From a virus (lineage: Duplodnaviria > Caudoviricetes), in the IMG/VR virus record IMGVR_UViG_3300045391_006539: a stretch of DNA of 64,000 nt; one strand, written 5' to 3'. The notes beneath the pieces were generated by a model that saw only the letters and a list, made by a program, of their open reading frames with translations, was not told the DNA's origin and did not search any database. Of the stretch, positions 12,836 to 64,000 are shown piece after piece (the stretch's first letter is position 1; each line of letters starts with the position of its first letter). The position numbers and the translations under genes are program-made.

Positions 12836-13338
12836 GCAGACCGACCAGCATGGAGCATGCGAAACCCATTGAGGAGTACCTGGCCGCCGGCGAGGAGGTC
12901 GTGCCACGCACTACTTGGTTCTATTTTGGCTACGACTGGCAATCACGCGAGAAGCAGGTCTTCCTGAACGAGCCGAGCGAGGACCTCCAGCGCTCTCTGG
13001 TGCAGGAAGGCAAGTGGCACCATCTCTACAAGCTGCAGGTCGAACTGCCCGTACCTGCGGAAGTCGATGAGCGTACGGAGATTCGCGTCTCGGAGACCGC
13101 CGACCTGCGCGTCGAGGTCATGCTCGACGCAAAGGACTACGCCGAGAGTGAGCGGCTCTCCTATGCGTTCGCCCGCCGTCTGTATGGCATTACGCCGTAT
13201 GTGATACCGGCGACGAGGACCATCAAACAGACGAACTACACCTGGAAGACGAACCTGGATGAGAAAGGCGAGGGTCCACACGTCTTCATCGTGGAGCGTG
13301 ATGGGCAACGGCTCCGGGTTACAGTAGAGGAACTATGA
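12832..13338 (+). CDS. Hypothetical protein
   Basis: Coupled ORF. Confidence 0.6.
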   Translation: MSRPTSMEHAKPIEEYLAAGEEVVPRTTWFYFGYDWQSREKQVFLNEPSEDLQRSLVQEGKWHHLYKLQVELPVPAEVDERTEIRVSETADLRVEVMLDAKDYAESERLSYAFARRLYGITPYVIPATRTIKQTNYTWKTNLDEKGEGPHVFIVERDGQRLRVTVEEL

Positions 13339-14057
13339 TTATCGGCATCCTCGGATTCGCTCAGACAGGCAAAGATACCATCGCCAATCTACTCGCCGAA
13401 CATGGCGCCCAGAAGATTGGCTTTGCCGACGAGCTCAAGCGCATCACGATGCAGCTCTTCGGCTTCACTCCCGAGCAGATGTGGGGCACCAAAGAGCAGA
13501 AGGAAGCCCCGGATTTGCGATACCCGCGTCTCCATTCCATCACGTATTACAACGATGAGCCGGGCAGCGTCAGGGTCAAGTGCCTATGCTGCGGTCTCGA
13601 GAGTCCCAGTGACGACATCGATGTGGTCAACGCGACGTACGAGGCTCCGTGTTACCTCAACGGGCGCTACGCATTGAAGACCCTAGGTACCGAGGGCGCT
13701 CGTGCGTGCTGGGATGGTATCTGGGTGCAGAAGGCCGTCCAAAACGCTCGTGGGATAGAGCGCGGTCTTTGGTACGACGTGCGGCAGGGTTTCGGGACCT
13801 CGTTTCACGACCATGCGGCCCCAACGACGGCCGTCTTCATCGATTGCCGCTTCGAGAACGAGGTCGTGGGCATCCAGGCTGCGGGTGGTCGGGTCTACCG
13901 CATCAAACGACCGGGCTACGAGAAGCCCATGTTCGACCACCCGAGCGAGACGGAACAACTACGCATACCCGATGATAAGCTCCAGGGTGTGATTCACAAC
14001 GACGGCACACTGGAAGACCTGAAGGCGAAAGCCATCGGGCTCCTCTCGGAGAGGTGA
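13335..14057 (+). CDS. Deoxynucleoside monophosphate kinase (T4 gp1-like)
   Basis: IIGILGFAQTGKDT P-loop, FADELK, LGTEGAR, DCRFENE, HPSE, IHNDGTLEDL. Confidence 0.9.
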   Translation: MIIGILGFAQTGKDTIANLLAEHGAQKIGFADELKRITMQLFGFTPEQMWGTKEQKEAPDLRYPRLHSITYYNDEPGSVRVKCLCCGLESPSDDIDVVNATYEAPCYLNGRYALKTLGTEGARACWDGIWVQKAVQNARGIERGLWYDVRQGFGTSFHDHAAPTTAVFIDCRFENEVVGIQAAGGRVYRIKRPGYEKPMFDHPSETEQLRIPDDKLQGVIHNDGTLEDLKAKAIGLLSER

Positions 14058-14060
14058 GGC

Positions 14061-14450
14061 ATGACGGCACGTACGTTCCAGCTCTCTCAGGAGGAATACG
14101 AGTCGCTCATTGCGCTCGCACGCCAGGGCGCCCAGCTCTCGGGCAACCAGAGCCGTGTGCGCCAGCTCGAGGAATGGCTGAAGCTCATCGAAAAACAGAA
14201 TGGCGTGAGTCGAAGTGTGGTGACGGTCTTGTGGCAGGAGCTCGATGAGCCGCTACCTCCGGGCACGTTCTTCCCCACGACCTGGCCACCGACGCTCAAG
14301 CGCACCGTCGAGCTCATCGGTAGACTCGTCTCCCGCGCCGACATCGACGCGGTGCTCTCGGCGCATGCCAAGAACCCGACCAGCGTGATGTGTACCAAAG
14401 ACCCCAATGGAGTCGTGGGCCTCACGCCCATCGACCAATTCTTCGTTTAG
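14061..14450 (+). CDS. Hypothetical protein
   Basis: ORF with SD. Confidence 0.6.
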   Translation: MTARTFQLSQEEYESLIALARQGAQLSGNQSRVRQLEEWLKLIEKQNGVSRSVVTVLWQELDEPLPPGTFFPTTWPPTLKRTVELIGRLVSRADIDAVLSAHAKNPTSVMCTKDPNGVVGLTPIDQFFV

Positions 14451-14453
14451 CGC

Positions 14454-14720
14454 ATGCCAACCATCGATGTGAGTCAGCTGCCGTCCTACGTCCTCCTGTT
14501 CGAAGACATCGAGGCGACGTGTACGGTCGATGGCTGGAAGAAGAAGTTCAAATTCGTCAACGGCATGAGGCTTCGGGTGGGTGACCCTTTGCCTCGCGGT
14601 GAAGACCCGAACTTTGATACATGCATGCGATGCAAGAGAAAGTCGATGCGAGTGACGAAGGTCCCGGAGGCCCCGTCCCCACTCCCGCCACGTGGCTTCT
14701 GGAGGGTTCCCACCGAATAG
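14454..14720 (+). CDS. Hypothetical protein (CxxC)
   Basis: CMRC motif; operonic spacing. Confidence 0.55.
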   Translation: MPTIDVSQLPSYVLLFEDIEATCTVDGWKKKFKFVNGMRLRVGDPLPRGEDPNFDTCMRCKRKSMRVTKVPEAPSPLPPRGFWRVPTE

Positions 14721-14743
14721 TCGTCGGCCCAGAGCCAGGACAG

Positions 14744-15073
14744 ATGACGGTGCACGGAGACTTCGGTCCCGTCGCCGTCGTGGAGGGACAAGTCAGTTGC
14801 CGTCCCATCGAGAGTGCCGCTCAGCGCTTTCGTGGGGTGGTCTACGACTTCGACCACCTCTGGTGGACGCACACCGGGATGATTCTGCTCTTGCAGGGGG
14901 TCATCTTGCCGAATCTCGTTGGCCCCGTGATGACCATCATCCGTGGTCAGCACAGCGAAGTCTGGCGCCCACGTCCCTGCGTGCGTGACGTGCGCTTCGT
15001 AGTTCAGATGGACAATCCAGAGGGTCTGTCCTGCGGCGACATCTTCCAGCTCGCCGTGGGTCTAGGCCTCTGA
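14744..15073 (+). CDS. Hypothetical protein
   Basis: ATG14744 after AGGA. Confidence 0.4.
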   Translation: MTVHGDFGPVAVVEGQVSCRPIESAAQRFRGVVYDFDHLWWTHTGMILLLQGVILPNLVGPVMTIIRGQHSEVWRPRPCVRDVRFVVQMDNPEGLSCGDIFQLAVGLGL

Positions 15074-15104
15074 CTTCCCTTCTTGCTAGGATTGTATATA
15101 CGAT

Positions 15105-16403
15105 GTGTCGACAATTGAGAGGCCCATGGTCCGACGAACCGTGACGCAGGGCTCGAGCAAGGGCGTGGTGGAGCTCCCCAATCCCACCGGTGAGGTGTTC
15201 ATCGCGCCAGGCGTCGGTGCCGAAGGCACGGCCAAGGCGCAGGGCTACCAGGCGGGCATCCACGCGCGGCGTGGGTCGTTGCCCAAGCAGGACCTGCCCC
15301 TCAACCCAGACCGGCCACTGGTGCCACACCTCTCGGGTGGACCCACCTCGGGCGGACGTCCCCAAACGATGGCCGAGTTCGCCGCCAGCGAGCGCGGACA
15401 GATACCCAGGGGACCCGCACCCGCCCCGGGCGGGAACTCCATCATCATGGAAGGTGCGCCCCGCCCCCAGGCGCCCCCCGCCGCGCCGCCGCGGCTGAAG
15501 CTCCTCCCCAACGACGTCCTGCCGACCCAGGCCAAGGACGACCCCGAGTACCGCCAGGGCTACGGGTCCGAGTTCGCTGCCAACCAGCCCAACCTGGCGG
15601 CCAAGTACGGGGTCATCCGGGGCGGTACCTTCATCCCGCCTCAGAAGCTCGTCGCCGACACGGGGCAAGCCAAGCTGCGACCTGACACCGTGGCGGGCCT
15701 GCAGGCGCTTCAGCAGCACCTGCAGCAGGGAAATGCACCCGAGCCTGCGCCTGATGCCGAGGACCTCGCGGCGGAGAAAGCCGTGGCAGAGGGCCTCGGT
15801 GGCTCGGCAGCGCGCATCGGGGGCGTCGACCCGGGTTCGGAGACCAAGCCGCGCGACAGCGACGACGAGCGCGCCAAGGCCCTCAAGCGCGCCATCGACC
15901 AGATGGACGCCTTCGAGTTCAACCAGTGGCGCCAGCTCACCATGCGCCAGATTCTCCACTCCGAAGAGGAGCGCGAGACCATCGAGAAGCGTCTACAGCC
16001 GCTCGACATCGGCGACATCCTGATGAAGGGGGTCATCCGCCAACGCATCCCCATCATCCCCGGTAAGTACGAGCTCACGCTGCAGTCCTACGAGGGTCAG
16101 GTCGAGCTCGCGCTCAAGCGCCTGGTCATGATGGAGAGTCGCAGCGTCGACGTCGGTGAGCAATACCTACTCGACAAGCACTCGTTCATGAGCATCGCCG
16201 TCGGCCTGCACAAAATCAACGACACGGTCTACCCCGATGTCTTTGACGCCAATGGGGTCTTCGACGACAAGTTGTTCTTCACCAAATTCAACCGCGTGAT
16301 GCGCTTGCCACTGCACATGCTCGCCAGTATCGGGGTCAACCTGATGTGGTTCGAAATGCGGGTGCGCAAGCTCTACTCGGCTACCGCACTGGGAAATGGC
16401 TAG
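15105..16403 (+). CDS. Putative tail assembly chaperone (gpG-like)
   Basis: Ends ...ALGNG* across the slippery heptamer GGGAAAT (16391-16397). Confidence 0.55.
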   Translation: MSTIERPMVRRTVTQGSSKGVVELPNPTGEVFIAPGVGAEGTAKAQGYQAGIHARRGSLPKQDLPLNPDRPLVPHLSGGPTSGGRPQTMAEFAASERGQIPRGPAPAPGGNSIIMEGAPRPQAPPAAPPRLKLLPNDVLPTQAKDDPEYRQGYGSEFAANQPNLAAKYGVIRGGTFIPPQKLVADTGQAKLRPDTVAGLQALQQHLQQGNAPEPAPDAEDLAAEKAVAEGLGGSAARIGGVDPGSETKPRDSDDERAKALKRAIDQMDAFEFNQWRQLTMRQILHSEEERETIEKRLQPLDIGDILMKGVIRQRIPIIPGKYELTLQSYEGQVELALKRLVMMESRSVDVGEQYLLDKHSFMSIAVGLHKINDTVYPDVFDANGVFDDKLFFTKFNRVMRLPLHMLASIGVNLMWFEMRVRKLYSATALGNG

Positions 16404-16819
16404 GGACTCCCGAAGGCTGGTCACGAGCAAATCTCTTGCTCAAGACCCTGCGAGCGCCACCCGAACCCGGGACGCTTCGGGAGTCCATGCTGAATCTGCT
16501 GCTCATGAAGCAAGAAGCCATCGAGCACGCACGGTTCAGAGCGCTCTCTCAGATAGTCATCGACAAGGACAAGGGCATCGAAGCATTTGAGGAGTACATG
16601 AAGACGGCCTTCCCGTACTTGGAGGCCACGAAGAAGAAAGACCGCAAAGAGTCCATCGACAAGCTCCTCGCAGAGATTGGTAAAGGAGCCATCGCCATTC
16701 GTCCCATCGCCACCCCCACCATGCGCAGCCGTATCTCCGAGGCCAAACAGAAGCGCATCGCACCCCAGTCCAAAGAAGAAGAGCAGAAACTCTACAAGCG
16801 CATCGGCCGTAGCATATGA
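16391..16819 (+). CDS. -1 frameshift extension (gpGT-like)
   Basis: The -1 frame GKWLGTPEGWSRANLLL... is open to 16819. Confidence 0.55.
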   Translation, partial: GKWLGTPEGWSRANLLLKTLRAPPEPGTLRESMLNLLLMKQEAIEHARFRALSQIVIDKDKGIEAFEEYMKTAFPYLEATKKKDRKESIDKLLAEIGKGAIAIRPIATPTMRSRISEAKQKRIAPQSKEEEQKLYKRIGRSI

Positions 16820-52528: not shown

Positions 52529-52850
52529 GCCCAAGCCCAGCGAGGTGAAGACTGAGGAAGTAGTCATGGCCAAGGTCCTCGACATTCGCGACCGGCTACC
52601 CCCACTCGTTTTAGGGGATAACCCTTGTGGACGAGTCGCAACCAAACTGCTCGCCGTACTCACCAACGACGAGAACGAACCCTACGTGCACATCGCTGCA
52701 TTGATTGTCACGAGCCATACGCTCCAGCGTCTGCTCAAAGAGGGCTATGGCACGAGTGAAGAAGAGATGCACTACATCCGTGAGCGCGCACACGAGATGG
52801 CCGAGAACATGCGCGTCGAACTCACCTTCAAGAAAGGACCCATGAAGTGA
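52449..52850 (+). CDS. Hypothetical protein (likely start 52566)
   Basis: ORF coupled to the next gene. Confidence 0.5.
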   Translation: MTSSKSGSGEPPTSENCEKDSQTNVDEPKPSEVKTEEVVMAKVLDIRDRLPPLVLGDNPCGRVATKLLAVLTNDENEPYVHIAALIVTSHTLQRLLKEGYGTSEEEMHYIRERAHEMAENMRVELTFKKGPMK

Positions 52851-53053
52851 GACTGAACCGCGTTGGAGAGGTCTATGGCCGACTCCGTGTCTTGAGGGCG
52901 ATGGGCGTCCTGGTCACCCATGACGGACGTACACAGTCATTGTCACAATGGTCGAAGGAACTCGGGATAGGAACGAGCACCCTATCGAGTCGTTACCACC
53001 GAGGTTTACCAGCGAAGGAGATACTCAGCCGTGTCGGTCTCAGACGTCGATGA
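52847..53053 (+). pseudogene. Internally deleted HNH homing-endonuclease remnant
   Basis: N-terminal GEVYGRLRVL joined directly to the C-terminal DNA-binding part THDGRTQSLSQWSKELGI..TLSSRY..G; no HNH core. Confidence 0.6.
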
Positions 53054-54176
53054 ATGGAATGGTGTTGGTCCGCTCCCTACTCTCTATGGACGTGCCGCAG
53101 GAGGTGCCACTCAAGAATGGGTGTGCTGGGTTGAAGGCTCAGACGTATGTGTACGCTGGGGGCAGCGTGGTGGGCAGATGCAAACCGCCCGATTCACATG
53201 CGTTGCCAAGAATGCGGGTAGGGTGAATGCCACAACAGCTGAGCAGCAAGCTGTGAAAGAGGCTCGCTCGAAGTGGCGCAAAATGGTCAAGGTCAAATAC
53301 AACGAGAACATCGAGATGGCAGGGGTGACCGAGCGCATCAAGCCCATGCTCGCAGAGACCTTCGCAGAACACGAGCACAAGCTGAAATACCCGGTCACCG
53401 TCCAACCCAAGCTCAATGGCCATCGTTGCCTCGCGTATCGAAAGAACGGCGAGGTGTTTCTACAGTCACGCAAGGGTGACCAGATTCGTTTGCCTCACGT
53501 CATCAACGACCTCCAGAACGTGCTCACTGGGTCTGGTCCCGTCCTAGATGGAGAGCTGTACATCCATGGCATGAGCCTCCAGAACATTGGCGCGCTCATC
53601 CGCCGTCCGAGACCCGAATCGCTCGCACTCGTCTACTGTGTCTTCGATGTACTTTTCACCTCCGGGGATACAGGTTCGTGGCTGGACCGATTGACGTGGC
53701 TCGAGAGCTTCTTCCAAACGTATAGCCACCACTATCCGCTCGGAAGAGCTCTCTGGAAGGTTCCAGGTATCGACGCCCACTCCAAGCAGGAGGTCATCGA
53801 CATCAAAAAGATGTTCATGAACGAGGGGTATGAGGGCGCCATCGTACGGGCCCATGAAGGCGAGTATCGAATGGGCCATCGCAGTGCAGAACTCCTGAAG
53901 CTCAAGGACTGGAAAGATGGTGAGTATCCCATCGTCGGCTTCACCGTGGGTCGCGGCAAGTTCGAGAACGCGCCCATCTTCACGTGCAGAACCCCAGAAG
54001 GCAAGGACTTCGAGGTGACGCCCATGGGCACAGCCCCGGAACGCTATCAACTCCTGCTCGAAGCTCCGGGGCTCATTGGCAAATTGCTGACTGTGAAATA
54101 TGCCGAGCTCACCGAAGAGGGGAAACCCTCTCATGCCCGTGGCGTGGCAATTCGTGACGAGAGTGACCTCTCGTGA
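53031..54176 (+). CDS. lig: ATP-dependent DNA ligase
   Basis: PMLA, VQPKLNGHRC (motif I), LDGELY, VFD, YEGAIVR, LLKLKD, TVKYAELT. Confidence 0.92.
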   Translation: MSVSDVDEWNGVGPLPTLYGRAAGGATQEWVCWVEGSDVCVRWGQRGGQMQTARFTCVAKNAGRVNATTAEQQAVKEARSKWRKMVKVKYNENIEMAGVTERIKPMLAETFAEHEHKLKYPVTVQPKLNGHRCLAYRKNGEVFLQSRKGDQIRLPHVINDLQNVLTGSGPVLDGELYIHGMSLQNIGALIRRPRPESLALVYCVFDVLFTSGDTGSWLDRLTWLESFFQTYSHHYPLGRALWKVPGIDAHSKQEVIDIKKMFMNEGYEGAIVRAHEGEYRMGHRSAELLKLKDWKDGEYPIVGFTVGRGKFENAPIFTCRTPEGKDFEVTPMGTAPERYQLLLEAPGLIGKLLTVKYAELTEEGKPSHARGVAIRDESDLS

Positions 54177-54813: not shown

Positions 54814-55206
54814 ATGCAAAACGAGTGGAGCAAGAGAACGCGCTATTGGTCACGGTGGGCACCCATCGTGAGAACGACTCCGAGCGGCAAGACAATGTTC
54901 GTCTGCCTCATCTGCGGCGAGTCGACTCCAGCACCGAGAAACGATTGTCCGGAGTGGGAAGAACCACACGGAGAGCGATTCGACCGTCTCGACCCGAGAC
55001 TCGCTGATAGGTTCGAGAGCGACTTTCACAACCTCAATTCATGCAGGAGTGTCGAACTACTCATCAATGTAGCCATCGACCGACACGCAGATAGATTCAA
55101 AGAGGACCTGGTCGAAGACCATCTTCGACCAGAATCCGAGAAGTATTGTGGGCTCTGCCATGGCTGGGGCTGTCAATCGTGCCTCGGCAAAGGCACGCGG
55201 TGGTGA
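54814..55206 (+). CDS. Zn-finger protein
   Basis: CLICG and CGLCHGWGCQSCLGKG. Confidence 0.55.
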   Translation: MQNEWSKRTRYWSRWAPIVRTTPSGKTMFVCLICGESTPAPRNDCPEWEEPHGERFDRLDPRLADRFESDFHNLNSCRSVELLINVAIDRHADRFKEDLVEDHLRPESEKYCGLCHGWGCQSCLGKGTRW

Positions 55207-56377: not shown

Positions 56378-56557
56378 ATGAGTGATGATGAAGAGACTGC
56401 GGAGAACGAGTGGCAATGGCTCGTTGAATTCTTCTGTCTACCACCCGGCACCCGAGTGACACGAGAGATTGTCTATGGAAACGTGATGGAGATTCATGTC
56501 GAACTACCGCCGAGCGGACTCGACCACGTCGAGTTCGAGCTCGACTTGACCATATGA
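56378..56557 (+). CDS. Small protein directly upstream of the Zn-finger array
   Basis: ATG56378 after GGAG; contains CLPPGTRV. Confidence 0.5.
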   Translation: MSDDEETAENEWQWLVEFFCLPPGTRVTREIVYGNVMEIHVELPPSGLDHVEFELDLTI

Positions 56558-56847
56558 CCGTCGAAGACGCGGTCGAAGAACTCCTTCAAGGGGCCACCAT
56601 CCCGTGTGGTCCCTGCAAGGGCTCGGGCATTGCTGGGATGAGCGCCACGGGCCCTGACCCATGCGGTGACTGCCATGGAGCAGGTCACTTCGTGCGTGAT
56701 AGATGGCTCAAAGCACGCGAGCTCCTCGGCAGCAGCACCCCAGTCCCTTACGGCAGACCCTGGTCCGAGTATCAGCAAGAGGAGTTCGAGTATCAGCGGG
56801 AGGAGTTCGAGCGCTGGGAGCGTACTGACAGGACATGTGGTCTATGA
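56554..56847 (+). CDS. Zn-finger array paralog 1
   Basis: MTVEDAVEELLQG..CGPCKGSG..CGDCHGAG..WLKARELLG..P. Confidence 0.75.
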   Translation: MTVEDAVEELLQGATIPCGPCKGSGIAGMSATGPDPCGDCHGAGHFVRDRWLKARELLGSSTPVPYGRPWSEYQQEEFEYQREEFERWERTDRTCGL

Positions 56848-57212
56848 CGGTCGAAGAAGCCACGGAAGAGATACTCCAAGGCGCGTTCGAGCCATGTGAG
56901 CATTGTAAGAGCGACCCAGGAGGCATGCGCATCCACGACGAAATCAGCATCTGCTACTACTGCAAGGGTCACGCCCAGGTCTATCGCAAGAAGTACCTCC
57001 TCGCATGCAGAACACTCGGCAAGGAACCAATACCCATCCCCAAGAGTCCCTTCCAGTTACAGGAGGAGGAGGTGTGGACACACATGTTCGAGAAGGCGGG
57101 CATCCTTCAAGAGGACATGAAGAAGCAGAGGTTCTCATCGACTACGCAGCTCTCGAAAAACTGGTCTACGCCGAACAGCAGAAGCGTGTCCAAAGGATGG
57201 AAAGGAAACTGA
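56844..57212 (+). CDS. Zn-finger array paralog 2
   Basis: MTVEEATEEILQG..CEHC..CYYCKG..YLLACRTLGKEP. Confidence 0.75.
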   Translation: MTVEEATEEILQGAFEPCEHCKSDPGGMRIHDEISICYYCKGHAQVYRKKYLLACRTLGKEPIPIPKSPFQLQEEEVWTHMFEKAGILQEDMKKQRFSSTTQLSKNWSTPNSRSVSKGWKGN

Positions 57213-57316
57213 GACTGCGCTGGCGGGTGGAGGAATTCAAAGGGGACACGGTCACAGACCCGCCTCCCTTGCCGAGCGTCATTCATTTGACGGCCACACC
57301 CGTGCAACTCAGCACT

Positions 57317-57748
57317 ATGAGCCGCGAGGACGCGGTCGAGATAGTCCTCTCCAAGCCGCTCTACTCGACATGTCCGTACTGTGAGCGAGGGCGCTATCGA
57401 GGTGCCATTCGTAATCCGATGGAGTGCGTCACGTGCAATGGCTGGGCGCTCGTTCCCAACCCCGAATACGTCAACGCCTGCAAAGTGCTCGGCAAAGAGC
57501 CACCTCCTCCCATGCAGATGTCGAGGCGGATGTACAAGAACATCTCCTTCGGACAGGCTTACGGCATGAGTGCCAGTCGTATGAGTTCACCCCAGCCCAA
57601 CCTACAGAACCCCCACTCATCCAGGGTTGATTGGGTCAAGGTCATGATGAGCCTTCCTGCACCGACCGTAGCGAGCTACTCTGAAACGGATGCCACGCTC
57701 ACGGCCTCCGCCATTACCGGCTTCCTATCCAACACTGCAAAGCGTTGA
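57317..57748 (+). CDS. Zn-finger array paralog 3 (frame open upstream to 57005)
   Basis: MSREDAVEIVL..CPYC..CVTCNG..YVNACKVLGKEP; Pol A-like tail. Confidence 0.75.
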   Translation: MSREDAVEIVLSKPLYSTCPYCERGRYRGAIRNPMECVTCNGWALVPNPEYVNACKVLGKEPPPPMQMSRRMYKNISFGQAYGMSASRMSSPQPNLQNPHSSRVDWVKVMMSLPAPTVASYSETDATLTASAITGFLSNTAKR

Positions 57749-57992
57749 AGAAACAGTCGAAGCCATCGAGTATGTGAAGTGCGAGACCTGCCACGGGTCT
57801 AGGCGCATAACGCGGGGAGTAGCCTGCGAAAACTGTGATGGGTGGGGGTATCACGTCTACCCCACCGAGTCTGCGGAGCGCTTCGCACTGAACCTGCGAG
57901 CGCTCCTCAGCACATCCGTTCTGTATCTATCTAGCCCCACAAGGCGTTTACGTCTACCCTCGAGGTCTCCCTGGAGGCTGCGTGGAACGTGA
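57690..57992 (+). CDS. Zn-finger array paralog 4 (divergent)
   Basis: EETVEAI..CETCHGS..CENCDGWG. Confidence 0.55.
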   Translation: MPRSRPPPLPASYPTLQSVEETVEAIEYVKCETCHGSRRITRGVACENCDGWGYHVYPTESAERFALNLRALLSTSVLYLSSPTRRLRLPSRSPWRLRGT

Positions 57993-58383
57993 AGAGGCTG
58001 TCGAGATAGTTCTGAAAGAGCCCGCTTGGCTCTCATGTGACGAGTGTGATGGTGATGGGATGCTCATCTCCACGCGTGAATCCTGCGAGTACTGTGAAGA
58101 TGGGTTCGTCTACAACCCCGATTTCCAGCTCGCATGCGACGTACTCGGGCGGGCCATGCCACCCAGACCCGTTCGCTCGTTGCTGGGACCAACAGGTCCC
58201 ATAGGCCCAACCGGTCCGAGTGGACCACCAGGCATATCCGTCAACTTTCAGGCCTGGAACGAGATACTCACAGCAGAACAAATAAAGGCGGTCTATGACA
58301 ACGACTTCATCGCGCGAATCGTGGATGCAGAACCTGGACCTCTTGGACCCACCGGCGGCTGTGGAGAGGATTCTCCAGGGTAA
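57982..58383 (+). CDS. Zn-finger array paralog 5
   Basis: EREEAVEIVL..CDECDGDG..CEYC..FQLACDVLGRAMP. Confidence 0.75.
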   Translation: MEREEAVEIVLKEPAWLSCDECDGDGMLISTRESCEYCEDGFVYNPDFQLACDVLGRAMPPRPVRSLLGPTGPIGPTGPSGPPGISVNFQAWNEILTAEQIKAVYDNDFIARIVDAEPGPLGPTGGCGEDSPG

Positions 58384-58762
58384 TGCATGGACCAAGTGCC
58401 ATGCCTGTTCTGCAGGCAACGTCATCACCATCGACGAAGATATGGTTCCCGAGTTCGAACCCTGCAAAGAGTGTAAGGGCTCGGGTTTGATACTCGACGA
58501 GAGCTACGCCCAAGCCTGCATGACGCTTGGCAAGCCCATCCCTGAAGAACCACACACCTCTTGGAACTCGGCCTTCGACCTCAGTGCCGAGGCTGCTAGT
58601 GCAGTGATAGCTACGTGGTACAAGGCCCAGTCGGGTGTGCTGGATGCAACCGTGAGTGCAGACCCAGCCAACCCTACGATGGCCAACGTCGAGCTCGTGC
58701 TCGAACAGCCGCTGAAGTACATCTCGTGTAATTTCTTCATCAAGGACCCCGATGGAGCGTGA
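58325..58762 (+). CDS. Zn-finger array paralog 6
   Basis: AAVERILQGNAWTKCHAC..CKECKGSG..YAQACMTLGKP. Confidence 0.75.
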   Translation: MQNLDLLDPPAAVERILQGNAWTKCHACSAGNVITIDEDMVPEFEPCKECKGSGLILDESYAQACMTLGKPIPEEPHTSWNSAFDLSAEAASAVIATWYKAQSGVLDATVSADPANPTMANVELVLEQPLKYISCNFFIKDPDGA

Positions 58763-59051
58763 GCAGGCTGTCGAGGTCATCCTTCAGGGCCAGGCTTGGG
58801 ACCCGTGCCGCAGGTGCAAGGGTCTAGCCAAGAATGGCATGTTTGCCTGCAAGCCCTGTCACGAGACGGGTTATACCAAGAACGATGAATATCGAGAGGC
58901 ATGCGTCGTCATCGGTAAGGAGGACTATCCCGAGATACCCATGACTGCCGGAGAGAAGATTGCTATTGCTCTCGGCAAGGGCATTCTCGAAGAAATGCGG
59001 CGCCCGAGCCTGGCACTTACGGCACTCCCACCGAAGATTGTGGACGAATGA
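58752..59051 (+). CDS. Zn-finger array paralog 7
   Basis: MEREQAVEVILQGQAWDPCRRC..CKPC..YREACVVIGK. Confidence 0.75.
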   Translation: MEREQAVEVILQGQAWDPCRRCKGLAKNGMFACKPCHETGYTKNDEYREACVVIGKEDYPEIPMTAGEKIAIALGKGILEEMRRPSLALTALPPKIVDE

Positions 59052-59257
59052 AGATAAACCTCATCAATGTGGCCACACTCCTCGTGCTTTGCCTCGCCTC
59101 GCTCGGGGTGGGGTGGCTGCTCGAACTGGTGGCCAGTTCGACGACAGACGACTGCGTAATAGTCATCTCCATCGTCACGGCACTCGCGCTCTTCTCACTC
59201 ATCAGCGCCCTTTTCATTCAAACCATGCAGCGATGGAAGAACAGAGACCCTCGATGA
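59048..59257 (+). CDS. Small 2-TM membrane protein inside the array
   Basis: Two hydrophobic helices. Confidence 0.55.
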   Translation: MKINLINVATLLVLCLASLGVGWLLELVASSTTDDCVIVISIVTALALFSLISALFIQTMQRWKNRDPR

Positions 59258-59454
59258 GCGGACTGAACTGGCCCGATGACTTCCTCGATTGCATCAGCTA
59301 CGGACCTTCCGAGGGTGAGGAAGGCTACATTGGGGACTACTTCCAACCTCTCGAATACCCTTGCAACTGTTCGACCTGCACACGCGAGTGGCGAGAGGCG
59401 ATGGGACTAATCGATGAAGACGACTCCGGCGATGAGCCTGGAGCAAGCGGCTGA
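59254..59454 (+). CDS. Small Cys-containing protein inside the array
   Basis: MSGLNWPDDFLDC..PCNCSTC. Confidence 0.5.
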   Translation: MSGLNWPDDFLDCISYGPSEGEEGYIGDYFQPLEYPCNCSTCTREWREAMGLIDEDDSGDEPGASG

Positions 59455-59740
59455 GGCCATCCTTCAGGGTAACCCTTGGCTCGAATGCTCCATCTGCCAT
59501 GACGGCAGCCAATCGCGCTGGTTTGGTGTACGAGGCGAGGACCTCAAGTGCCCCGCCTGTGCGGGAACTGGCTATTGTCCACGCAAGGAGTACGCAGAAG
59601 CATGTCGGACCCTCAATCGCGAGATGCCTCCTCGTCCAGTCACGAGGAGCGGCAAGAAGACCCTGACCGCGCGCGAGAACAAGATGACACTGCGTGGCCT
59701 CTTCAAGCGACTACCGAGAACCCGTGGCCCGAAGACATGA
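59414..59740 (+). CDS. Zn-finger array paralog 8
   Basis: MSLEQAAEAILQGNPWLECSIC..CPACAGTG..YAEACRTLN. Confidence 0.75.
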   Translation: MKTTPAMSLEQAAEAILQGNPWLECSICHDGSQSRWFGVRGEDLKCPACAGTGYCPRKEYAEACRTLNREMPPRPVTRSGKKTLTARENKMTLRGLFKRLPRTRGPKT

Positions 59741-60009
59741 CCCGAGAGGAGGCCGTGGAGGTCATCCTCAAGGGCCATCCTTGGTGCGCGTGCTGGCTTT
59801 GTCTCGGCAGCGGTCGGGGCACTGACGGCAAGATACACACGTGCACGCTCTGTAAGGGCGAGAAGAGCATCGTGCGCGCGCCCTACGCCAAGGCGTGTGA
59901 GCTCCTTGGCAGACCACTGCCCAAACTGCCACCCAAGACCATCGGCTTCGAGGTCAGCGAGGAGCTGGTCATCTCCATTTTCCACCCTAGAGCCATACCC
60001 AAGCTCTGA
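59737..60009 (+). CDS. Zn-finger array paralog 9
   Basis: MTREEAVEVILKGHPWCACWLCLGSG..CTLCKG..YAKACELLGRP. Confidence 0.75.
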   Translation: MTREEAVEVILKGHPWCACWLCLGSGRGTDGKIHTCTLCKGEKSIVRAPYAKACELLGRPLPKLPPKTIGFEVSEELVISIFHPRAIPKL

Positions 60010-60018
60010 AAGCAACTG

Positions 60019-60219
60019 ATGACACCTGAAGAAGCCGTAGAAATCATTTTGCTCGGGGAGGCCTGGTTGTTCTGTGAAGCATGTGGCGGATGCGCCTTGC
60101 CACTTTGTGCTCGATGTAGGGACTATGGTGGCGCCATCCTCGTACCCTCCTATGCTGAAGCATGTCGCGTTTTGAACAAAGCACTCCCCATCCATCGGTA
60201 TGACCATGGCCCTGACTAA
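60019..60219 (+). CDS. Zn-finger array paralog 10 (almost no tail)
   Basis: MTPEEAVEIILLGEAWLFCEAC..CARC..YAEACRVLNK. Confidence 0.75.
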   Translation: MTPEEAVEIILLGEAWLFCEACGGCALPLCARCRDYGGAILVPSYAEACRVLNKALPIHRYDHGPD

Positions 60220-60940
60220 GGAAGAGGCAGTAGAGGTCATCCTCCAAGGGAAGGCATGGCTCAAGTGCCCAGCCTGCGACGAGGATGGTCTACCCCACCC
60301 CGAGCCCAAGACCGTGAATGGCATCGCGGGCAGCGTCCTTACCATGCGGCGGTGTTCGCTCTGTGAGTACGGCTATACCCTCCGCCCCGAGTACCGGCAG
60401 GCGTGTGAGGCTCTCGGTAGACCCATACCCCAACGAGACAACCCCTTCTCCTTCGAGCTCCCAACCACACCAGGCAGGACCCTTCAGGCGGGAGAGGCGG
60501 TGCAGATGGTCTATCTCAACGGGCGCTGGGTCGCCATGGCAGCCGGCGGCGCTGGAGGTGGAGAAGTCCCAGACTCACTGAAGAAGCACCTCCCGTCCCA
60601 TCCCCATCAGGGCGACTACACGACTGTCGTCACGGCTCCTCCAGGACAGGGAGGGTCAGGCCCGAGCGTGCAGGTCATGATGCCCCGGGGTGAGTTCGCG
60701 GTGCAGATAGACGAGCGCATCGAGACCCTGCGCTTCGACCCGCGAGGCACGGTCACCATCACGGGCTTCCAAGCGCCCGTAGACCCCAACGCGCCGGTGC
60801 TACCGTCGGTCCATCTGGTGAAGACCGGAGGAGGCGAATTAGTCCTGGGTCGAGAAACGCGTGATGAACCCTCGGATGACCACCTCATGTCCCAGTCACT
60901 ACCCTCGTGGGCACTGACTCACGAGGACCCGGAGAAGTAG
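60200..60940 (+). CDS. Zn-finger array paralog 11 (long tail)
   Basis: TKEEAVEVILQGKAWLKCPAC..CSLC..YRQACEALGRPIP. Confidence 0.75.
   Translation: MTMALTKEEAVEVILQGKAWLKCPACDEDGLPHPEPKTVNGIAGSVLTMRRCSLCEYGYTLRPEYRQACEALGRPIPQRDNPFSFELPTTPGRTLQAGEAVQMVYLNGRWVAMAAGGAGGGEVPDSLKKHLPSHPHQGDYTTVVTAPPGQGGSGPSVQVMMPRGEFAVQIDERIETLRFDPRGTVTITGFQAPVDPNAPVLPSVHLVKTGGGELVLGRETRDEPSDDHLMSQSLPSWALTHEDPEK

Positions 60941-60987: not shown

Positions 60988-64000
<3,013 letters not shown>

Follow-up and report, generated by a model that had tools for sequence, protein, structure and literature searches.

Eleven paralogous genes for small zinc-finger proteins have been identified, all on the + strand, between positions 56554 and 60940 of the Caudoviricetes sequence IMGVR_UViG_3300045391_006539 (IMG/VR), using regular-expression and open reading frame (ORF) scans of a 64-kb (64,000-nucleotide) stretch of this DNA, which is called the window throughout. 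An earlier note, made from the letters of the window alone, had described 11 adjacent and mostly overlap-coupled ORFs here, and this description is borne out by the regular-expression and ORF scans and by a six-frame profile scan. The products, p1 to p11 (Table 1), are about 65 to 250 amino acids (aa) long, and they belong to an old, operon-embedded, multigene family of mini-proteins, in each of which a Pro-rich linker joins a zinc-knuckle domain to a peptide or mini-domain specific to the paralog. By sequence comparison, a subset of this family appears to carry short look-alikes of segments of family A DNA polymerases -- the start of the polymerase domain, the thumb helix ILEYRxLxKLxSTY, the stretch RLSSxDPNLQNIP, and motifs A, B and C. 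No twelfth member was detected when the whole window was scanned in six frames with a profile of the zinc-knuckle module; since that profile was made from the same 11 paralogs, the scan proves only the absence of a twelfth copy. Two ORFs within the array, x1 and x2, are not members. The second of these is possibly a decayed half-module, and it is not picked up by the module profile.

The module covers about 64 residues: an N-terminal helix, M-T-x-E-E-A-V-E-x-I-L-x-G; two Cys-x-x-Cys knuckles with a spacing of 8-30 residues; a second helix, Y-x-x-A-C-x-x-L-G; and the Pro-rich linker. The motif given for it in the earlier note, [MT]xEEAVE[VI]ILxG...CxxC...CxxC...YxxACxxLGxxxP, is correct by paralog alignment. 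The four Cys and one Glu are invariant in all 11 paralogs, and the Cys are nearly invariant in 120-135 relatives as well; with tails that differ from one paralog to the next, this bears out the picture of a constant zinc scaffold with paralog-specific tails. The four conserved Cys are predicted to be able to form a single-zinc site. The full CxxCxGxG signature is present in only about 7 of the 22 window knuckles.

Table 1. The zinc-knuckle array, the ORFs embedded in it, and the genes that anchor it on either side (positions in the window)
Feature	Position	Strand	Description
p1	56554-56847	+	97 aa; module and acidic Glu/Phe-rich tail; both knuckles canonical CxxCxGxG
p2	56844-57212	+	122 aa; RIHDEISI between the knuckles; tail end ...NWS...GWKGN
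p3	57197-57748	+	183 aa (public assembly call); module from 57317
p3 tail	within 57197-57748	+	Pol I motif B-like RRMYKNISFGQAYGMSA, immediately followed by RMSSPQPNLQN
p4	57690-57992	+	100 aa; divergent module from about 57735; basic tail
p5	57982-58383	+	133 aa; GTG start; module, (GXY)5 collagen-like run, WNEILTAEQIKAVY, second short GXY run
p6	58325-58762	+	145 aa; start uncertain (58295, 58325 or 58361); module and 71-aa tail
p7	58752-59051	+	99 aa; from ORF and profile scans
x1	59048-59257	+	69 aa; non-member; two hydrophobic stretches, predicted membrane protein; ATGA overlap on each side
x2	59254-59454	+	66 aa; acidic; retains only C-x-C-x-x-C...EWREAMGLI (by eye)
p8	59414-59740	+	108 aa; DGSQSRWFG insert in module; basic tail
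p9	59737-60009	+	90 aa; from ORF and profile scans
p10	60019-60219	+	66 aa; module, nearly tail-less
p11	60200-60940	+	246 aa; ATG at 60200 or 60206; module and 170-aa tail with VYLNGRWV
ATP-dependent DNA ligase	53031-54176	+	Pfam; upstream syntenic anchor of the array
Collagen-like tail fibre gene	60997-63999	+	open at window end; downstream syntenic anchor

No family in Pfam, PHROGs or NCBIfam was matched above threshold by the paralogs or by a set of 97 tails drawn from the window and its relatives. Below threshold, the module has recurrent likenesses to two known zinc-knuckle families. Pfam DnaJ_CXXCXGXG (PF00684) matches 85 and Anti-TRAP (PF15777) 35 of 135 family members, in every case under the gathering cut-off; the best DnaJ_CXXCXGXG scores are 19.6 bits for a window paralog and 25.8 bits for any family member, against a cut-off of 32.7, and the Anti-TRAP matches have E ≥ 1.5e-4 and fewer than 32 bits. 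The NCBIfam Anti-TRAP model NF058604 gives p4 18.4 bits against a cut-off of 65, and the BSD2 domain is matched by four members; NCBIfam and the ESM Atlas agree in a weak DnaJ/Anti-TRAP likeness of the module. In an AlphaFold2 model of p3 the module has a predicted local distance difference test (pLDDT) score above 90 and the tail one of 50-60, with a helix over the motif B-like stretch. A Foldseek search with the module puts Anti-TRAP chains on top (template modelling score by target about 0.5, E about 1), and Anti-TRAP is the sole match in VIA-align (Z 2.5, root-mean-square deviation 3.2 Å over 45 residues). From these profiles and models, the module is best described as resembling a DnaJ/Anti-TRAP-type zinc knuckle while being, by thresholds, a member of neither family.

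The best structural match, Anti-TRAP (RtpA of Bacillus; PDB 2bx9, 3ld0, 3lcz), has about 53 aa; its two DnaJ-type Cys knuckles hold one zinc and precede a helix, and the protein acts as a small protein-binding inhibitor. Unlike Anti-TRAP, the window proteins, which are encoded in phage arrays, have a conserved helix at the N-terminus and continue through a Pro-rich linker into tails that are long and variable. With the central Cys-rich domain of DnaJ and the BSD2-type stand-alone zinc-finger chaperones (PF00684, PF25436) the module has CxxCxGxG knuckles in common, but it has two knuckles rather than four, many of them degenerate, and it comes without the J domain or the DnaJ C-terminal domain.

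The genes of the array are tightly packed. Overlaps of 4 nucleotides (ATGA) join p1 to p2, p7 to x1, x1 to x2 and p8 to p9; those at p4/p5 and p6/p7 are of 11 nucleotides, and those at p3/p4 and p5/p6 of 59. Such overlapping start and stop codons suggest that the paralogs are made together from one transcript. The p4/p5 and p6/p7 junctions (57988-58014 and 58758-58784) share the build ..GG[AG]CGTGA[AG].., in which the upstream stop TGA lies inside the Glu-Arg-Glu codons of the downstream gene. The tail ends RGT and DGA result from out-of-frame reading of the ribosome site and ATGAC...GAAGAG start that belong to the next gene, and in relatives the tail ends KKP, KEP, DDD and DDT are likewise set by the Shine-Dalgarno sequence and ATGAC start of the following gene; many tail-end residues are thus imposed by the start signals of the next gene and are not to be taken as functional motifs. 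The pooled tail codons have a GC content of 0.68 at third and 0.50 at second positions, like the modules, so that the tails look coding, and the homologs of tails in other phages (below) are evidence that this appearance exceeds chance. A public gene caller missed p4 and p10 on the identical contig of the Joint Genome Institute (JGI); the small overlapping genes of this locus are under-annotated, p4 having been missed though its orthologous tail is kept in two other phages. A scan for sigma-70 promoters and terminators gave nothing convincing within the array. The promoter-like phage motif GGGATAA occurs at 52615-52621, about 400 nucleotides upstream of the ligase gene; its 5 copies in the window are not significantly more than the expected number of about 2, and the copy at 52615 could start a transcript running through the array.

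The family is a large one in metagenomes. Among 1.84 billion cluster representatives, the module profile found 709 proteins when E ≤ 0.001 was required, and 93 at the stricter E ≤ 1e-10; most are of 64-250 aa with an N-terminal module and a variable tail. Ten sampled members are all metagenomic, nine of them unnamed or called "hypothetical protein" and one labelled "RecJ-like exonuclease". Neither blastn nor tblastn found a match in 50,697 deposited phage genomes; a degenerate DNA pattern for the N-terminal helix gave 17 matches in IMG/VR, all chance, and among the matches listed for bacterial and archaeal genomes (at least 120) all were chance as well; a ligase-seeded search gave no relative in IMG/VR; and word-index homolog searches with p3 and with the module returned self matches only.

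Arrays of 7-14 copies were found on four other contigs: L002 (at least 10 copies in 3.8 kb), L003 (7 copies, 89-kb contig), L022 (13 copies plus 1, 165-kb contig) and L023 (7 copies). Three of these four are syntenic with the window, having the DNA ligase ahead of the array and tail fibres behind it. Gene order in L003 and L022 is as in the window: NT5C and the ligase come first, a few small genes separate them from the array, and collagen/LamG fibre genes follow it. The flanking genes are 1:1 orthologs of those of L003, including the small genes between ligase and array, with the ligases 52% identical. The N-terminal 134 aa of the fibre are 57% and 44% identical to those of the two fibre genes that follow the L003 array. 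An uncultured phage clade of about 165-200 kb keeps arrays of 7-14 copies between its DNA ligase block and its tail-fibre genes; the contig from which the window comes measures 200,805 bp.

The earlier note had called the tails hypervariable and suggested that the repeated 5' module could be a recombination cassette for swapping payload tails. Some of what lay behind this proposal stands: the 5' ends are recognisable as DNA repeats, the tails, of 10-170 aa, are indeed mutually unrelated within the array, and the best relative of a module and the best relative of its tail often differ. The 5' repeats are, however, only 60-78% identical between paralogs, too low for a recombination cassette, and for 38 of the 46 modules in five arrays the nearest module lies in another genome. 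Subfamilies inherit module features and tail class jointly: modules with GPY...W.RGDY go with one tail class, and modules with an IHDE loop with tails that end in NWG. Stretches of gene order are common to L002 and L022, both of which also have p4 orthologs with a conserved basic tail (at 287 and 9392, respectively), and the p8 module is 63% identical to that of family member P0028.

Most of the tails also have relatives in other phages. When they were compared with the tails of other family members, none of 100 shuffles reached the real score for p2 (homolog P0090), p9 (homologs P0067 and P0143) or p11 (a motif common to P0031 and P0042); the corresponding counts are 1 for p7, the tail of which resembles those of P0078 and P0030, 2 for p4, 3 for p3 and 7 for p5, with the WN..L[ST]AE motif of the p5 tail aligning to a family tail class (hhalign P 0.0013). 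For p1, p6 and p8, no tail of another member rises above shuffles as a relative. Homologs elsewhere were thus found for 6-7 of the ten testable tails, and hypervariability with payload swapping is not what these comparisons suggest; the co-inheritance of module and tail, with nearest neighbours in other genomes, makes a recombination cassette very improbable. The paralogs are, as judged from their alignments, old genes rather than hypervariable cassettes. Copy number and content differ among relatives (11, 7 and 13), which indicates turnover, yet not by tail swapping on a constant cassette.

The likeness to family A polymerases is clearest in p3. Its tail matches Pfam DNA_pol_A (PF00476) with E 0.011 and 15.1 bits (gathering cut-off 34.3), over profile positions 193-228 only, and NCBIfam "pola" with E 0.009. 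Against all PDB sequences, 22 of its 23 matches are to Pol I (Taq or Klenow), in alignments that cover motif B and, separately, RLSSSDPNLQN; for another tail, from L022, 36 of 37 matches are to family A polymerases, on the thumb helix. DNA_pol_A is the sole Pfam family matched by more than one tail (two of the 97). The C-terminal helix, linker and motif B of p3 are collinear with E. coli Pol I 737-770 (z = 6); in such single-sequence Smith-Waterman comparisons with E. coli Pol I, control proteins also reached z values up to 5.3, so that z-scores alone are no proof of the likeness and a profile test is needed. In the p3 ortholog of L003 the key residues of motif B are kept with synonymous codons that differ, which points to conservation at the protein rather than the DNA level.

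For the profile test, an independent Pol I profile was built from ten bacterial sequences of the enzyme, that of E. coli among them, and 162 family proteins were scored against 4860 composition-matched shuffles, with the reversed profile as control. (A search with T7 gp5 gave T7-like polymerases only and was too narrow to be used.) Above the 99th percentile of the shuffles lie 14 of the 162 proteins (1.6 expected; 2 with the reversed profile), above the 99.9th percentile 6 (0.16 expected; 1 with the reversed profile), and 5 beat every shuffle (0 expected; 0 with the reversed profile). Across the family, polymerase-like pieces are thus clearly more frequent than either the shuffles or the reversed profile would give, and local likeness to conserved family A polymerase segments is, at the level of the family and by this profile measure, beyond chance. 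The matched positions of E. coli Pol I are 527-557, at the start of the polymerase domain; 607-646; 661-678; 691-714, with motif A, in one tail and one N-terminal extension; 748-767, with motif B; and 872-890, with motif C (QVHDE), in the inter-knuckle loop of one subfamily. It is the loop of P0120 and P0090 that aligns to motif C; p2, with its comparable loop, has no significant Pol I profile score of its own.

All of these matches are single pieces of 12-40 residues, not in polymerase order, and they are found in tails, in N-terminal extensions and in inter-knuckle loops. Neither Pfam, for p3, nor the Pol I profile, for the family, found an unbroken polymerase domain in which motifs A, B and C follow one another in order. 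A motif A-like stretch pointed out in the earlier note, VLIDYAALEKLVYA (57131-57172), lies upstream of the p3 ATG at 57197 in the public assembly, overlapping the p2 tail in another frame, and in its own frame it is probably not translated; clearer motif A look-alikes are found in the relatives P0014 and P0106.

The one known case in which a two-knuckle CxxCxGxG insertion is joined with family A polymerase sequence is that of phages of the HMO-2011 type, which have a family A polymerase with a two-knuckle, partial DnaJ insertion (PMC9038755). The module profile aligns to the knuckles of the HMO-2011 polymerase (NC_021864 gp12) only, at residues 292-331, and the likeness stops short of the flanking helices. 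At 680 aa, HMO-2011 gp12 is a whole polymerase in which the motifs follow the normal order, whereas the window family has scrambled polymerase-like pieces of 20-40 aa on proteins of 90-250 aa.

The earlier note had read several tails as patchworks of motifs from essential phage proteins; this can be upheld for p3, with its family A polymerase likeness, and for p5, with a collagen-like fibre run, and not for the other proteins named. Neither a PHROG nor a Pfam match was found for p7 and p9 as capsid, p6 as sheath or p5 as portal; the p6 tail has no homolog either. Over the 97 tails, the totals of weak matches, 17 and 13 where about 10 are expected, are near chance in Pfam as in PHROGs. The collagen run of p5 matches tail-fibre PHROGs (E 5e-4), a match that is real but of low complexity, and it is also the only tail segment to exceed shuffled controls when the tails are compared by tblastn with the rest of the window. 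A terminase-like tail class was first seen by eye in relatives; it is absent or degenerate in the window. Two relatives' tails match terminase PHROGs weakly (PHROG 2 / 5653; Terminase_6N; E 0.0032 and 0.06), profiles of the terminase-like tails found nothing relevant in PDB, the tails showed no enrichment against six terminases, and the p1 tail is not significantly similar to the class; the terminase likeness is weak. An array of precursors of ribosomally synthesized and post-translationally modified peptides (RiPPs) was considered and rejected, as the "leader" would be a confidently modelled zinc domain and the tails reach 170 aa; no RiPP-modifying enzyme was seen among the Pfam-scanned window ORFs and the precomputed genes of neighbour loci, some small neighbouring ORFs being unscanned.

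The interpretation that we favour, tentatively and in the knowledge that it may well prove wrong, is one of mimicry or titration by the tails, in which the polymerase-like members would compete for a factor that binds the polymerase. The zinc domain would serve as a stable, possibly oligomeric scaffold, and the tail would decide the protein partner of each paralog. The polymerase-like members would display surface or active-site peptides of the polymerase, which would compete for a factor normally in contact with a family A polymerase; this might be an inhibitor, a pattern-recognition sensor of the host, or a partner in the phage's own replisome. Several points weigh against it. The case is built on sequence comparison and predicted structures; the individual polymerase matches are weak (E 0.01-0.2; 4-20 bits), p3 alone in the window passes the Pol I profile test, and most tails match nothing known. 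The phage may have no family A polymerase at all, the comparison with its genes having covered the 64-kb window, and the polymerase-like pieces may be remnants of evolution that no longer serve any function. The special case of an immune decoy, in which the tails would imitate core phage epitopes and bind Avs or CapRel sensors without activating them, seems unlikely. It is plausible in context, because bacteria have sensors for family A polymerases, in Avs19, and for terminase, in Avs1-3 (PMC13581612), exactly the proteins to which the statistically real polymerase-like pieces and the two terminase-like tails of another class point, and fast-turnover arrays of small genes, here of 7 to 14 copies among relatives, are typical of conflict loci. 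Avs sensors are reported, however, to recognise whole folded cores (PMC13581612), which a peptide of 20-40 aa may fail to reproduce; the capsid, portal and sheath readings are unsupported, the enrichment against six terminases is lacking, and no defence or anti-defence family was matched, the PADLOC library not having been searched. We give a similarly low rating to the wider proposal of a viral peptide-display system, in which the zinc scaffold would show miniature polymerase, and perhaps terminase, motifs as decoys that blunt Avs19- and Avs1-3-type receptors or as poisons of the enzymes of competing phages.

Doubtful, and still to be taken seriously, is the possibility that the family is a relic, derived from a truncated zinc-finger-bearing family A polymerase or by repeated capture of polA fragments, with pieces that are decaying, have no role in mimicry, and have an unrelated function or little function at all. 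PolA enzymes with a two-knuckle DnaJ insertion do exist and the module profile matches that insertion, the collinear stretch of p3 would be a remnant of this kind, and a scrambled order of pieces is what deletions and duplications should produce. The match to the HMO-2011 insertion is limited to the knuckles, however, and the surviving pieces are the most conserved polymerase motifs, kept between phages with ligases just 52% identical; this retention counts against a relic, since neutral decay would not favour such motifs. It is quite unlikely that the proteins are assembly helpers, that is, DnaJ- or BSD2-like zinc-finger holdases for the folding or trimerisation of the collagen/LamG fibres and other large phage proteins: the array always lies directly upstream of fibre genes, the collagen triplets of p5 resemble the neighbouring fibre, and the zinc domain is of DnaJ type with its four BSD2 matches, but most tails are unlike fibres, the polymerase-like tails do not suit such a role, and there is no J domain. 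Improbable, too, is that these are nucleic-acid-binding regulators, small zinc fingers that multiplied within one lineage to act as DNA-binding proteins or transcription factors. Such a role has been suggested for the Zn-ribbon proteins of Bacillus phage G, expanded there to roughly 35 copies (Iyer et al. 2021, PMC7824862). There, as here, one jumbo phage has many paralogous small zinc-finger genes, and the p4 and p8 tails are strongly basic; the zinc finger of phage G is nevertheless of another type and, on a comparison by description only, no scaffold-plus-tail design or polymerase-like pieces are described for it. DnaJ/Anti-TRAP-type knuckles are moreover known for binding proteins, the tails are for the most part acidic or neutral, and no repeated operator-like DNA motif was noticed.

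Some features of the neighbouring genes may be added. Between the ligase gene and the array, a 130-aa gene at 54814-55206 ends in two adjoining CxxCxGxG knuckles (CGLCHGWGCQSCLGKG); it is kept in L003 (42% identity) and is not detected by the array module profile. The 134-aa fibre start (window 60997-61400) recurs in L003 at 12948-15785 and 15850-16467, a pattern that fits a shared attachment domain with exchangeable distal parts. L001 is a second assembly of the window phage, which over 13.8 kb differs only by an indel of 18 nucleotides at 62259-62274, in the collagen-like fibre gene; the indel consists of two GGACCCACG units, coding for Gly-Pro-Thr, and looks like a fibre length polymorphism within the population.

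Small zinc-finger expansions in jumbo phages are known and yet unexplained. The family described here is large, with its 709 cluster representatives, every one metagenomic, has a clear scaffold-plus-tail design, and bears no informative name among the ten members sampled. It adds a statistically supported oddity, in that the best-conserved segments of family A polymerases have isolated look-alikes, apparently grafted on tiny proteins; as bacteria sense such core phage proteins, this makes it a concrete candidate for a counter-measure based on mimicry. A peptide-display decoy, if true, would be the first anti-sensor strategy by motif mimicry, and if mimicry fails, the family would still document how an essential enzyme has been broken into domesticated fragments.

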